Source of the DNA: Leucoraja ocellata
Lineage: Eukaryota
Direction of reading: 5' to 3'
Length of the DNA: 64,000 bases
NCBI GenBank assembly: GCA_036785375.1
Contig: JAWMAR010000415.1
Location: 186,001-250,000 of the forward strand
In this document: positions 31,716 through 40,125 of the stretch, piece after piece
Layout: each line of letters begins with the position of its first letter
Numbering within the stretch: the stretch's first letter is position 1
Notes under the pieces: model-generated
What the model was told of the DNA's origin: nothing
What the model saw: the letters and a program-made list of their open reading frames with translations, nothing else
Databases searched by the model: none
Translations under genes and position numbers: made by a program

Positions 31716-34700
31716 ATTTTACTTCGGAGTCACGTGAGTGATTCCGTGAAGACCCCAGCCCAGTGCGCAGGTGCGGCATTATCGCACAGCTGTGCAACAC
31801 GCGGCCAGCGGGAGTCGGGCGCTCCCGCAACCAAGGACGTGATGTAAGTACTTACCTTAATCGGGCCTTGTGGTTTTTTGCTCCAGGGGGAGCAAAGCAG
31901 CAGAGGAAGCGGCCCCCGTTCGACTCCAGCGAAGGAACCGACAGTGGAGGGGGATAGGCGCAAACGGGACCGCACACGCTGCGGTCCCCTGACAGGGAGC
32001 TGCGCTGATGCCGGTCCGCTGAACAGCTGTTTGGTTAACAGCAGCGGACCGGAGGGAAATTAAAAAAACCCGACCGGCAGCCCTGCAGACTCCTGACAAG
32101 GAGAATCGCTGCCCGGGAACCGCTACAATGCCGCCTGAAAAACGGCAGGCAGCCTCTAAATACAGGTAAGGCAAAAACCTTACCAAATTTACAGGTTCTA
32201 TAGGAATCAACTTCCTCCAACACTGGAACAGGCTGGAGACAGCAAAAATAAGTATGTCTGTCTCCCCAAGCCAGAGGAGGTCATGGAGTTCAAAACCTCC
32301 AGGAAAAAAGGGGCACTGGCTGAATGCCAAGGGAGCTGACACTCCTACCCCAGTGCTATTGCACTAGCCATCTCCCTTGTCGAGGGATTGATGCAACAGC
32401 GGAGTTTGAGCTATGCCTCCTCCAATTTATAGCACACCCTTTTGCTCCCTCTTTTGAGGCTAGCTAAGGAGGCCAGGGCTGGGCTGGCTTAAACGCTGGG
32501 CAGGCGGACGAGAACAGCAGTATGCCAGGGGAGCAGGATCAGGAAGAGCTACTGGGTGTCGTGGGCCACTACATGGCTCCTCCACGCGACCATCTTCCCA
32601 AACAAAGGCCTGCAGGAGTAGGCCTTTCTAGAGGCAAATCCGCAGGCAGCTGGGTCAGCAGACTCGCAGACAAGAGCTAAAAGCAGCGAACTTTGAAGCT
32701 CCTAACAGAGGGTCAAGATGTCACCACCTTTGCTCGTTTTTTCCACGGATCATACTCACCTGGCAGGCGAGACGCCATGATCACCAAGGTGGTTCTCCCA
32801 GGATGAGACTATCCCGTTGCACTACGAGTGTGCTGACGCCTAAGATGTTCCCAAATTTGGGATACTCGACTGACATTTGTGCATATAAGACCTGCCTGCA
32901 ACCCCAAATATACGGGGCTATGCAAACCGCTGCTGCGGGAAGAGAGGCAGCTAAACCTGTGCGCCTCATGAGGGCAGGCCATGGAACGAGCAGGACATCG
33001 CATCCAACACCCAGCTGGCAGCACCCCTCGGCATCCACCAGCAATATCGAACAAGGACTGGTGAAAGCCTGGCGACCGCTTCACATTACCCCCAAAGTTC
33101 TTTTTAGACAGGGGCCCAGAGCGGAGCCGTGGGAAAATGCGCCGCCCCACCGACAGCACCAGCATACCAGCAAAACTAAGCCTTCATGAAAAAACAATAA
33201 ACATGGAGGTAGGTAGTCTGGTTCCTCCCAGTTTACACTAAATAAGGGTGTTCTACTAACTGCGGGGGGGGGCATTTACACTTATTGATAAAGCATGGGT
33301 GCTGTCACAAATAACTAAAATATACTCAACAGTATTAGTGGATAAAACTTGAATTCAAATTGGGGGATCATGGGAGTAAACATGAACCATTGGAATTTGT
33401 ATCGAATATATTCACCAAAACTACAAAAGATGGTGGATGTAGCATCATCATTGATCTAATATCACTAAATATATCTGTTGAATATATACACTTTAAGATG
33501 GAGACGGGTTTTTGTCACTGCCAGACATCTGATCTCCAAAGGATACCTATGGCGAGCATTGATATGGAAGATGCTAACTATCTTATACCCATACACTAGG
33601 ATCATTATAGATACCTAAAAAATTTTGCCTGGATAATGGATATCCCGGTTAGGGCAACTATGGGAGTATAGAGCATTCCCAATGGTCTAACCTCAGCCCT
33701 AAACTATTATAAATATTAAAAATGGCCATGAAAATATTAAGAAAACAAGCATAAACATGGCATATATTGGATGATATCCTCATATTAGGGGAAACAAAGG
33801 AATTAGCTGTGGCAGCAGTTCTAGCTACGAAACAGCTCCCTAAAGCTCTGAGGTTCATCCCACGCCCAGATAAACCAGAATTGAAGCCGTTAACTACCAT
33901 GGATTACCTGGGCTTCAATAACAATTCCATCCATATGACTGTTACTTTGCCAAGGTACTTGGGTCACTATAATCAAATCATGAATGTACCCACTGAAGCT
34001 ATATCACAATTACAGTGGTGGGCAGACATATATTTGGCATAGTTTTCAGCCCTATTATCATCACCAATCCCAACTTGGTTATTAAAAACCGATGCCAGTA
34101 CTTTAGGCTGGGGAGCAACTAAACTCCATATCCAGCACAGGTAACAGATGGACCAATTCAGAAACATCGTTACTACACACACCGGGCATCAACTACTTGG
34201 GATTGGTGATCGCCTATTGGGCTAAAAAGCATATGCATTTCAAATGCAGCACGTACATATGTGGTTACGGATTGATAATACTATGGTGGTGGCTTATATC
34301 AACCATATGGGGAGCATAATAATCATTATTGTGCAGCAAATTGGTCAAACAGATCTGGCAATGGTGTGTCAAAAGACATTTTAACTATCAGCTGCCTATT
34401 TCCTAGGAAGCTAGAACACAGTGGGAGACACCACGTCACGGGTAAAAATTTATGATAACATTGAATAGATGTAAAACCCAAAATATCTGCTAAAGGTATT
34501 AAGCAGTTTGAAAGCCAGATATCAATTTGGTTGCACAAGACGGAATCACCAGTAACCTATGTATGTGACTTAGGAACCAGATCAGAGGCAGCAGCGATAG
34601 ATGCCTACACGCTGGAAGGGGGAATTTCTGCTTTGCCTTCCTCCCTTCTGCCTCATCAGTCGGGCACTTCACAATACAGATGGAATCTGTCTCAGAGATA

Positions 34701-36416
34701 TTGAACGTGCCCGACCGGCCTACACAGCCATGGTTCCCAGTTCATCACGACATGGTGGGCAAGTCACCTATGGATTTCCCTAGTGGACCATGGTTGCTGA
34801 CTCAACCCAGTATCAGGCATAAGCCACCCATGCCAGAAAAACATCAAACTCCTGGGTGCAGGTTTTGAATAGACCTTACCAGGGACTGGGATTATCCAAA
34901 GGAACCATTACCACCATGTCGGCATCCCTGCGAACAGTCACCAAGATCTAACATGGGTAAAATACTGCCACGACGCAGGGACAACATACCAAACTATTCA
35001 ACCACTGACGTATTGGAGTTCCTGGAACATCTACACCATGACTAAAAGGTGAGTTACAGTGCCGTAAATACAGCATGGAGCACCTTGTCTGCTTATCTAA
35101 AACAGCAGGACAGCAGAGCATGGGATCCCATCCACTGAAGATAAACTTATGAAGGGCAACTATAATAATAAGCCCCAAAAACCCAGGTATACCCATGTAT
35201 GGGATATCGGTGTGATATTGACATATCTCAGAGAATGGCACCAGCCAGATCCCTCAGTCTTGCTCAATCTATGTTAAAAACGCTCATGCTTATGGCTCTT
35301 GTATACGCTCACAGAGTCCAGTCACTCCATAAAACTAGACTGGATAACATGGTGATTACCCCAGACGCATCACGTTCATCATTCTAGGTCTGGTAAAAAC
35401 CTAACTCGCAGGTATATGGGACTAGGCGAGATTATGAGTTCGGCACGGACTAGTAGGGTCGAGATGGCCTGTGTTTCCGTGCTGCAATTGTTATATGGTT
35501 ATATGGACCAGGAACGTCCTATTCACTGGTGGGATTCCGGGCCTACCCACCAGAGTCCAGGTTGAGTGTGGTGACCCATCTACTACAATATATAGACACA
35601 ACCCACAATCTTAGAGGGAGAGGAAAGCCTATGGGTCAACCACAGAAACCCCAAGACGGGGTACGAGCCAAACCACTCCAAGGTGGCTCAAACAGGTACT
35701 GAAAGCTGCCGGAATAGATAGTAATACATTTTAATCCCATTCCACTAGGGCAGCATTGATATCAGCGGCTGAACGAATGGACATCCCGGTTGACCACATT
35801 CTCAATACGGCAGAATGGTCAAGGGAACGACGTTCAGAACATTTTTTATTGTAAACCGTTGATAAGCCTTATTTAATTGCAGAAAGAATATTACAAACTG
35901 CAATATTAATTTAAGCTCAGGGGAGCTATTTATGTTGTTATTGTTAACAAATACCTTTCTGTTTCTTGTGAAAGCAGATCCATTGGTTGATTACGATAAC
36001 ACTTCCTCCCTCAAAAACTTCGGCAGTGAGTGAAATAAAAACTGTTACACGGTTTGAAATCACAGACCTTTGAAGTCTTCATGGAATCACTCACGTGACT
36101 CCGAAGTAAAATAGTAAGATTAAACGAGTACTTACCAGTATGAAGTTTGATCTGTATTTTATGAGGAGTTACGATGAGGGATTACGTGCCCTCCGCTCCC
36201 ACCCTCAATATATAGATCAAACTAATAAACTGATGTCTCATGATCTTTTACTATCTTACTTCAAATATTGTGTCTATCCTGTGATTTCACACCGCTGCTT
36301 CGAAGTATGCCGCACCTACGCACTGGGCTGGGGTCTTCACGTAATCCCTCATCGTAACTCCTCATAAAATACAGATCAAACTTCATACTGGTAAGTACTC
36401 GTTTAATCTTACTATT
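31716..36416 (+). mobile_element. Full-length, degenerate DIRS1-like tyrosine-recombinase retrotransposon (gag, RT/RNase H, methyltransferase-like, YR)
   Basis: Inverted termini plus an internal complementary region (about 36075-36188) matching both element ends; ATT trinucleotide at both junctions. RT motifs FKMET, SID..DA and LDDILI; RNase H KTDASTLGWGA and IDNTMVVAYINHMG; PPFCLI; YR LKTLMLMAL..RVQSL and HSTRAA. Confidence 0.93.
32752..32881 (+). pseudogene. U1 snRNA-derived fragment (5' end to about the Sm site, stem-loop IV missing)
   Basis: Ungapped match to vertebrate U1 over 121 nt (about 23 mismatches by hand): ATACTCACCTGGCAGG, GATCACCAAG (70K loop), TTGCACT (U1A loop), CCCAAAT..GGGATACTCGACTG, then ATTTGTG. 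Confidence 0.9.
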
Positions 36417-39395: not shown

Positions 39396-40125
39396 CATCA
39401 TCATCGGCAGTCACTCGAAACAAGTATGATTGTCCTCTCCTCTCCATAGGGTCGTCTACTTGTGGGTCTGCAGATGTCTGTAGAGGCCGACCTGCGATCC
39501 ACACACCTTGGTGCAACGTGGGCAGTGGAGACTGGCGGTGGTTGGTAGTCGTCGAGTTCCCTTCTCTCTCTCCTTACGGTGCTGTTGCTTTGTCTCTGCG
39601 ACATGGCGTAGTTTCATTTCATGACGTGCAGCTCCTTCCTGCATGGATTTCCTCAAGGAGCGCCTGTCCTGTGCAATGTGCTCCCAGTTGCTCGATGTGA
39701 TGTGGAATTTCTTCAAGCTGTTCGTGATGTTGTCCCTGAAGCGTTTCTTTGGCCCGCCGGGGGCTCGCCGACCTTCCTTCAATTGAGAGTACAGGATTTG
39801 TTTAGGGAGACGTGTGTTGGACATGCGGATGACATGGCCATTCCATCAAAGTTGGTGCTGCATTATTGTGTTGGTGATGCTGGTCATGTTGGCTTCCTCC
39901 AAAACGCTGATGTTGCTGCGTTTGTCCTCCCAGCTGATCCTCAGAATCTTTTGTAAGGATCTTTGATGGTATTGTTCCAGGGCTCTCAGGTGCCTGCTGT
40001 AGGTGTTCCATGACTCGGCTCCATATAACAGGGTGGAGAGGACAACGGCTCTGTAGACCTTGTTTGAGCCTTTAGGTCTCAGTCTTCAGACTCTTTTCCT
40101 GAGTCTGGCGCAGGCTCCACAAGAG
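39396..40125 (-). mobile_element. RTE-clade LINE 3' portion
   Basis: RLPKQILYSQLKEGRRAPGGPKKRFRD ... CPRCTKVCGSQVGLYRHLQTH; (GAT)n tail. Confidence 0.85.

Follow-up and report, generated by a model that had tools for sequence, protein, structure and literature searches.

A DIRS1-type retrotransposon subfamily of at least 1,588 copies carries a piece of U1 snRNA in place of part of its gag region

A DIRS1-type retrotransposon that has lost its coding capacity carries, in at least 1,588 genomic copies, a piece of U1 snRNA in place of 78 nt of its gag region. The account that we favour, and hold to be probably correct as a whole, is that the U1 piece was likely acquired by a double template switch of the DIRS reverse transcriptase (RT), that the chimera was likely spread by the proteins of intact DIRS elements and that the U1 piece is likely functionless. 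We read directly from the DNA the replacement and its junctions, the copy numbers, the dead open reading frames (ORFs), the order of changes and the independent sites flanked by ATT. The element described here lies in the window, by which we mean the whole stretch of 64,000 nucleotides that was analysed, and is made up as follows:

31716..36416, + strand: non-autonomous DIRS1-type (tyrosine recombinase) retrotransposon of 4,701 bp with ATT at both ends (repeats, alignments)
31716..31779, + strand: left terminus and left inverted terminal repeat (45 nt, 93 % complementary to 36307-36351)
32435..33197, + strand: gag remnant with stops, frameshifts and deletions (open ORF1 of relative L153 as tblastn query)
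32708..32720, + strand: short patch, missing from sisters and from the oldest U1 copies (element comparison)
32751..32756, + strand: 5′ junction, five bases common to U1 nt 1-5 and to the gag of U1-less sisters (alignment)
32752..32881, + strand: captured U1 snRNA, replacing 78 nt of gag (Rfam match, alignment to host U1 and to sisters)
33065..34866, + strand: pol remnant (RT, RNase H-like, methyltransferase-like) with many stops and frameshifts (alignment to L153)
34862..35908, + strand: tyrosine recombinase (YR) remnant (alignment to L153)
35407..35506, + strand: piece of a CR1-like LINE (its 3′-terminal 100 nt) within the YR remnant (tree and element comparison)
36075..36188, + strand: internal complementary region (ICR), 97 % to the left end and, over 79 nt, 100 % to the right end
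36307..36416, + strand: right inverted terminal repeat and right extension (inverted-repeat match)

The architecture is that of a DIRS1-type element, with inverted terminal repeats (ITRs), an ICR complementary to both ends, whose halves overlap at a 3-nt circle junction (36110-36112), and NTT at both ends without a target site duplication (TSD). The gag, pol and YR frames of the window element are full of stops and frameshifts; all three ORFs are dead and the element lacks coding capacity. These broken frames yield no Pfam family, and the pol and YR remnants were recognized by alignment to L153, which matches RVT_1 (E=2e-19) and Phage_integrase (E=5e-8), with sub-cutoff matches to RVT_3 (E=0.03) and PCIF1_WW (E=0.08). 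Further motifs in the pol alignment are presumably those of RNase H and of a methyltransferase-like domain. The available text on DIRS1-like elements (PMC3266345, PMC7192593) describes the same organization of ITRs, two-part ICR with a 3-nt circle junction, ATT ends and gag, pol and YR genes within about 4.8 kb; the window element differs in that all its ORFs are dead and a host snRNA lies inside it.

Dead and open-ORF elements alike measure about 4.7-4.8 kb despite many deletions and gains, and their length may be constrained. The kinds of repeat present would fit a cartilaginous fish. Short GT-AG intron-like segments are seen in the window (31843-31858) and in the leaders of L262, L266 and L268. 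Within each of these segments lies a motif that could pair with the segment's own donor, much as the U1 5′ end does; in the U2 lineage described below there are several duplications of this kind. Away from U1, frames at 39456-40085 on the minus strand are, by their likeness, taken to come from an RTE-type LINE protein, towards its C terminus.

The U1 piece (+ strand) matches the Rfam U1 model RF00003 from model position 1 with 64.5 bits (E=1e-15). This score is slightly below the RF00003 gathering score of 69.5, and a gathering-threshold Rfam scan of the window is blank, the U1 match appearing by E-value only. Host U1 genes of the L047 type share 88 % identity with the piece over 133 nt, and it lies 1,036 nt inside the DIRS element on the same strand. 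Pairwise alignment indicates that it originally comprised U1 nt 1-139 and is 130 nt long today, having undergone 15 substitutions and lost 8 bases; compared with the oldest copies, which keep the full Sm region, the window copy has a deletion there.

A first-pass annotation, made from the letters alone, had described 130 nt of U1-like sequence starting at the U1 5′ end, in sense orientation between named gag remnants, and both points are borne out by the Rfam match and the gag alignment. It had also seen no poly-A, no TSD and no snRNA promoter; around the window piece we likewise find no poly(A), no TSD and no upstream sequence common to host U1 genes. The features of a functional U1 gene are missing too, as the flanks are gag, stem-loop 4 (SL4) was never captured and the Sm site is shortened or lost.

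U1 nt 1-139 replaced 78 nt of gag, as the earlier reading had allowed for. Gag flanks spaced 80-110 nt apart give 156 pattern matches genome-wide, and among the 30 that we examined 29 are U1-less sisters and one is a decayed U1 copy. The stretch that measures 135 nt in the oldest chimera is represented by 78-79 nt of gag in the U1-less sisters, and the capture junctions show no TSD, 78 nt of target being missing. We rejected a pure insertion of U1 into gag, since flanks 5-35 nt apart have 0 matches genome-wide. A role of U1 as in-frame gag coding sequence was also rejected, given that the sister gag is already frameshifted and that a stop interrupts host U1 when read in this frame.

The two junctions differ in kind. 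At the 5′ junction gag reads the same as the first five U1 bases, which amounts to a 5-nt microhomology at U1 nt 1, or six bases if the preceding gag C is counted; the pentamer is found at 7 of the 4,755 sites (0.15 %) of a sister element. At the 3′ junction, U1 nt 139 is followed by one extra C and then by gag, with a microhomology of 0-2 nt, none clear. The chimera has the form expected of a template switch, with a host RNA in place of internal element sequence, in the same sense and without a TSD.

The U1-bearing subfamily is large. An internal 23-mer with derived U1 letters has 1,588 copies genome-wide, a lower bound for U1-bearing copies, and a 21-mer at the 5′ junction has 917 exact copies, which supports the suggestion that a DIRS subfamily carries U1. 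The host-type U1 5′ 17-mer is present 71 times in the genome, and U1-derived DIRS copies thus exceed host-type U1 copies more than 20-fold. The DIRS end motif has 32,838 exact matches genome-wide, equivalent to about 16,000 elements at two matches per element, which belong to many lineages alike in little besides their ends; U1-bearing copies account for about a tenth of them. We inspected the ends of those 36 of 61 stretches, U1-less ones included, that match both end motifs exactly, and found that 35 of the 36 left ends and 33 of the 36 right ends read ATT and that the flanks are unrelated. Copies were therefore placed one by one via the DIRS route.

The same data bear on the idea that a single-copy U1 pseudogene landed in gag by chance, or that the chimera is an artefact of assembly. 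Nothing beyond the sub-threshold Rfam score speaks for it and we give it practically no credence, because hundreds of identical junctions lie at unrelated sites and a contig from another sequencing run bridges both U1 junctions. Other runs carry the derived alleles. A single-copy insertion with a TSD and intact gag on both sides, the case that the first-pass annotation had named as the counterexample to its own reading, is not what we observe: the junctions number in the hundreds, there is no TSD and gag is broken. In the contigs of four runs presumed to be RNA, which cover all 30 bins, we found neither element ends nor GT-AG joints, and we give them no weight in the argument.

Nested insertions and flanks aside, the longest frame in 40 U1-bearing stretches measures 205 aa. 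Some near-identical copies with the same end motifs as the dead ones keep three open frames (L261 and L264, with 453, 693 and 338 aa), and we infer that elements such as these are likely the helpers that mobilise the dead copies. Coding-dead DIRS lineages in thousands of copies imply full mobilisation in trans. For Dictyostelium, the available text of PMC7192593 shows the DIRS RT acting in trans and stops short of the full trans cycle.

We ordered the events with a tree of 47 elements out of 61, 14 having been dropped as truncated or with large insertions. The U1 and CR1 columns were masked, leaving 3,728 columns, and L187, L196 and L171 were scored as U1-minus though they carry U1 remains. 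The tree is a ladder, with a support of 0.94 for the U1 clade. It starts with open-ORF elements, passes to dead U1-less sisters and then to U1 copies with a canonical 5′ end and a full Sm region; the loss of 6 nt, the change to C at U1 position 6 (C6), the CR1 piece and the upstream patch follow in this order. On this reconstruction the U1 copies of the subfamily derive from a single origin. Gag is already broken in the U1-less sisters, and the capture thus occurred in a non-autonomous lineage.

In sequence, the oldest copies differ from the sisters by 2.7 % and from the young copies by 6.5 %, while young copies differ among themselves by 2.3 % on average and by 0.6 % at the minimum. The copy burst came after U1 decay: only four copies keep the original full U1 3′ end, and the canonical T6 is found in 12 copies, ten of ancestral type and two being back-changes in young copies. 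The CR1 piece at 35407-35506 has no TSD; it was gained after U1 and passed down to younger copies. In some copies the patch at 32708..32720 is a 14-nt exact match to this CR1 piece 2.7 kb downstream, and its copying from there fits further RT jumps in the U1 lineage.

The tree also addresses where the unusual U1 letters come from. The first-pass annotation had noted a changed splice-site recognition end, and C at U1 position 6 is real. From this and from three pair-preserving changes it had suggested a structured variant-U1 source; one of the three, A23G (A-U to G.U), is derived as proposed, while G20-C44 and G96.U112 are the host's own pairs. The presence of C at position 6 in 917 copies is what favours an insert from an expressed variant U1 gene reading GTGAGT donors. 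Against it, the basal copies are canonical at the 5′ end and match host gene type L047: L142, L144 and L147 have 1-2 substitutions relative to host U1 and score 112-116 bits (RF00003), the oldest copies carry host U1 with as few as one change and a normal 5′ end. The PSE-driven variant gene that had been envisaged is not seen either, as a C6 5′ end combined with the host-type G17 has 0 matches, an exact pattern that misses genes with further changes. We consider a variant-gene source highly improbable; the placement of the copies on the ladder indicates that the 'variant' letters are later gains, made step by step as the DIRS lineage evolved.

The U1 piece is likely a passive passenger without function, judging from how its sequence has changed. 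Within the lineage, 14 of 128 U1 columns changed compared to 54 of 654 in the gag flanks (p=0.31), two of the 14 being alignment noise at the Sm deletion, and the branch that leads to the earliest C6 copies shows 9 of 118 and 35 of 616, respectively (p=0.40). U1 did change faster than the rest of the element (14/128 versus 229/4,425, p=0.009), which may be accounted for by its higher CpG density (5.8 per 100 nt in U1, 3.2 in gag and 1.7 in pol). In the window copy 5 of the 33 host pairs are broken, against 4.65 +/- 1.6 expected from 20,000 random draws; one change preserves a pair and there are no double compensatory changes. Folding compared to shuffled sequences, a weak test, gives z values of -1.0 for the window copy, -0.4 for the oldest copy and -1.8 for host U1 nt 1-139. 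Of 30 copies sampled in contig order, 12 retain the Sm core, 12 have it mutated and 6 have it deleted, and a branch of 497 copies without the U1 5′ end and SL1 was still amplified. Random breakage of pairs and the amplification of branches without Sm site, SL1 or 5′ end also make the idea of a variant U1 gene fail.

One could suppose that the snRNA pieces were kept for a benefit to the non-autonomous RNA, for example the binding of snRNP proteins or the masking of splice sites. The first 100 of 1,033 matches divide into about 85 U1-bearing copies and 15 of their closest U1-less sisters, U1 or U2 remains are present in 6 of 30 sampled full-length DIRS stretches, and U2 was renewed at an identical site (see below), all of which would agree with a benefit. 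On the other hand, the original U1 3′ end persists in only 4 copies and the original 5′ end in 10, with the burst following decay; branches that had lost the 5′ end, SL1 or Sm site reached hundreds of copies; pairs break at random and the window copy shows no folding advantage over shuffled sequences (z=-1.0); and only about one in ten of the roughly 16,000 elements with the shared end motif has U1. We therefore regard a benefit as improbable and continue to treat the U1 piece as cargo. As a separate observation, the reverse of the captured U1 5′ end (window 32749-32766, minus strand) reads like a consensus splice donor in about 900 copies, and this antisense donor could affect introns hosting a copy.

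A second snRNA turned up in other DIRS elements. From the first 100 end-motif matches we formed 30 pairs 3-6 kb apart, which gave 28 new stretches; L256 consists of two opposed ends and is not one element. U2 from nt 1, in sense orientation, is present in two of the 28 stretches (L254 and L268; Rfam, 110 bits) and is the only captured RNA that Rfam reports in them. BLAST finds decayed U1 in L251, L257 and L269, which Rfam also missed, and together with L091 this makes 6 of 30 stretches with U1 or U2. Older captures may thus escape Rfam detection. The U2-carrying pieces are:

L254:1658-1825, L268:1772-1939 and also L347-L406, sense: U2 snRNA (Rfam, BLAST)

These elements form a separate non-autonomous lineage, whose gag has 40-43 % amino-acid identity to L153 and which shares 52 % identity with the U1 lineage over the 3′ part and sits on a separate branch of the tree. 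One form of the U2 5′ junction has 194 copies and the downstream flank has 667, of which 30 of 30 examined carry U2, so the lineage numbers at least several hundred copies. In the older form (30 copies) a single U2 piece spans nt 1-90 and is 84-90 % like host U2; five bases at its 3′ junction also occur in the DIRS sequence that follows. L360 and L373 carry U2 nt 1-96, identical to the host at 96 of 96 positions, in place of about the first 30 bases of the old piece and beginning at the same site. These sequences suggest that the lineage likely took up U2 twice. Three genome-wide patterns for a U2-less ancestor gave 0 matches. In the leader of these elements, a short GT...AG stretch precedes the U2 site.

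Each of the three captures has the sense orientation, starts at nt 1, ends in the single strand adjoining the Sm site and has no TSD. We propose that an RT copying DIRS RNA from 3′ to 5′ would leave its template in gag and resume on U1 between the Sm site and stem-loop 4. On reaching the U1 5′ end it would return to the DIRS template by pairing the last five cDNA bases with the identical pentamer 78 nt upstream. Intact termini and ICR would then allow the RT and recombinase of a helper to keep mobilising the chimera, and U1 would decay like the dead gag around it. In the unrelated U2 lineage a similar process would have happened twice, the second return taking place at the 5′ end of the older U2. 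Strand transfer by an LTR-type RT, described for LTR elements and mRNAs in the available text of PMC5131818, predicts a return of this kind, to the pentamer in the case of U1 and to the 5′ end of the old piece in that of U2. The template-switch chimera raised in the first-pass annotation is the best mechanism at hand, one that we infer from the junctions rather than see directly.

The rival mechanism is that a LINE enzyme put a tailless U1 or U2 pseudogene, with a deletion of the target, into a genomic DIRS copy that later became the source element. LINE activity on snRNAs is visible in this genome, in three poly(A) U1 copies with TSDs, in U1 heads on CR1- and SINE-like sequence and in a LINE with U1 or U2 heads whose insertion site is U2 nt 37/38. 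Non-DIRS truncated U1 copies also lack a detectable TSD, and the absence of a TSD therefore discriminates weakly. The U1 lineage itself fixed a CR1 3′ end resembling an ordinary LINE insertion, and the U1 and old-U2 3′ junctions share an AT-rich 7-mer, a possible endonuclease site that we noticed after the fact. Truncation in single-stranded snRNA and 3′ microhomology are LINE hallmarks in the available text of PMC4476161, and the old U2 3′ junction does share five bases.

Several points weigh against the LINE explanation. Young U1 retrocopies are rare: the U1-headed LINE family aside, about ten of some 70 host-type loci examined lack the upstream sequence of host genes. Three captures in propagating lineages, all in sense orientation and two of them within one 100-nt stretch, are unlikely by chance, and the U2-targeting LINE does not insert at the second U2 junction, which is some 7 nt upstream of its site. 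Human truncated snRNA copies have TSDs in 70-100 % of cases according to the available text of PMC4476161, and the DIRS captures have none. We judge a LINE origin unlikely, and keep the double template switch by the DIRS RT as the preferred mechanism.

It is conceivable that the phenomenon is broader, namely that DIRS RNPs routinely take up U1 and U2 snRNPs, that the RT jumps recurrently and even overwrites an old capture by homology, and that DIRS elements join LINEs and LTR elements as a third means by which RNA gives rise to duplicated sequence and are, in this genome, the chief origin of DNA derived from U1. We put this extension forward tentatively, at slightly less than even chances. If true, about a thousand strong antisense splice donors would have been spread as a by-product.

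Comparable captures are known from other element classes. In the available text on LTR-mediated retroposition (PMC5131818, Tan et al. 2016) a host RNA is likewise copied into the interior of the element in place of some of its sequence, with a median microsimilarity of 6 bp where the template is switched, and non-autonomous spread occurs there as well; here the carrier is a YR element, the cargo is an snRNA instead of an mRNA and there are more than 1,000 copies. The words 'snrna' and 'dirs' have 0 occurrences in the PMC5131818 text. In the available text on U6/L1 and snRNA/LINE chimeras (PMC4476161, Doucet et al. 2015), the RT copies the snRNA from an internal single-stranded point to its 5′ end, as here; those chimeras are one-off insertions with a TSD that begin with the snRNA, mostly U6, whereas here it is internal and shared by a whole subfamily. 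That text lists no U1/L1 template-switch chimera among 33 human U1 copies. Packaging and copying of snRNA by retroviruses (Giles et al. 2004, as cited in the available text of PMC4476161) also involves an RT of the LTR/retroviral type, with few and ancient copies that form no amplified subfamily and are not DIRS. The SINEU families of crocodilians, as far as described in the available text of PMC4494074 (Kojima 2015), similarly have U1 and U2 pieces added recurrently to amplified retroposons; they are short, have an snRNA head and are moved by Tx1 LINEs, whereas here the piece lies 1.0-1.3 kb inside a 4.7-kb DIRS element with DIRS ends.

The word 'snrna' has 0 occurrences in PMC3266345 and PMC9210276, and in the literature searched (subscription journals, Repbase and supplements excluded) we found no snRNA capture by DIRS or other tyrosine-recombinase retrotransposons. 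Recurrent high-copy capture of snRNA by DIRS elements appears unreported, though capture itself is known for LINEs and LTR elements. The replication cycle of YR retrotransposons is known mostly from one Dictyostelium element, and the captures provide fossil evidence on the RNAs that the DIRS RT meets and on its template switching and return. The series from empty sister through fresh capture to stepwise decay is complete and unusually clean. For annotation, more than 1,500 U1-like and several hundred U2-like matches in this genome represent transposon cargo and not snRNA genes.

Other snRNA-derived copies were seen outside DIRS elements. The LINE-like family inserted at U2 nt 37/38 (L208, L228, L229-L245, L042, L046) begins with U1 nt 1-56/60 or with U2 heads and includes at least 16 near-identical U1-headed loci. 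We take this family to be Keno-like. Its U1-headed form resembles the starting point proposed for SINEU. Six U1 genes with normal upstream sequence (L204, L215, L219, L223, L227, L246) are cut at nt 32-52 and joined to mostly LINE-like sequence. Among further truncated U1 copies, L218 is joined to a CR1 body and L199, L205 and L206 to SINE-like heads.
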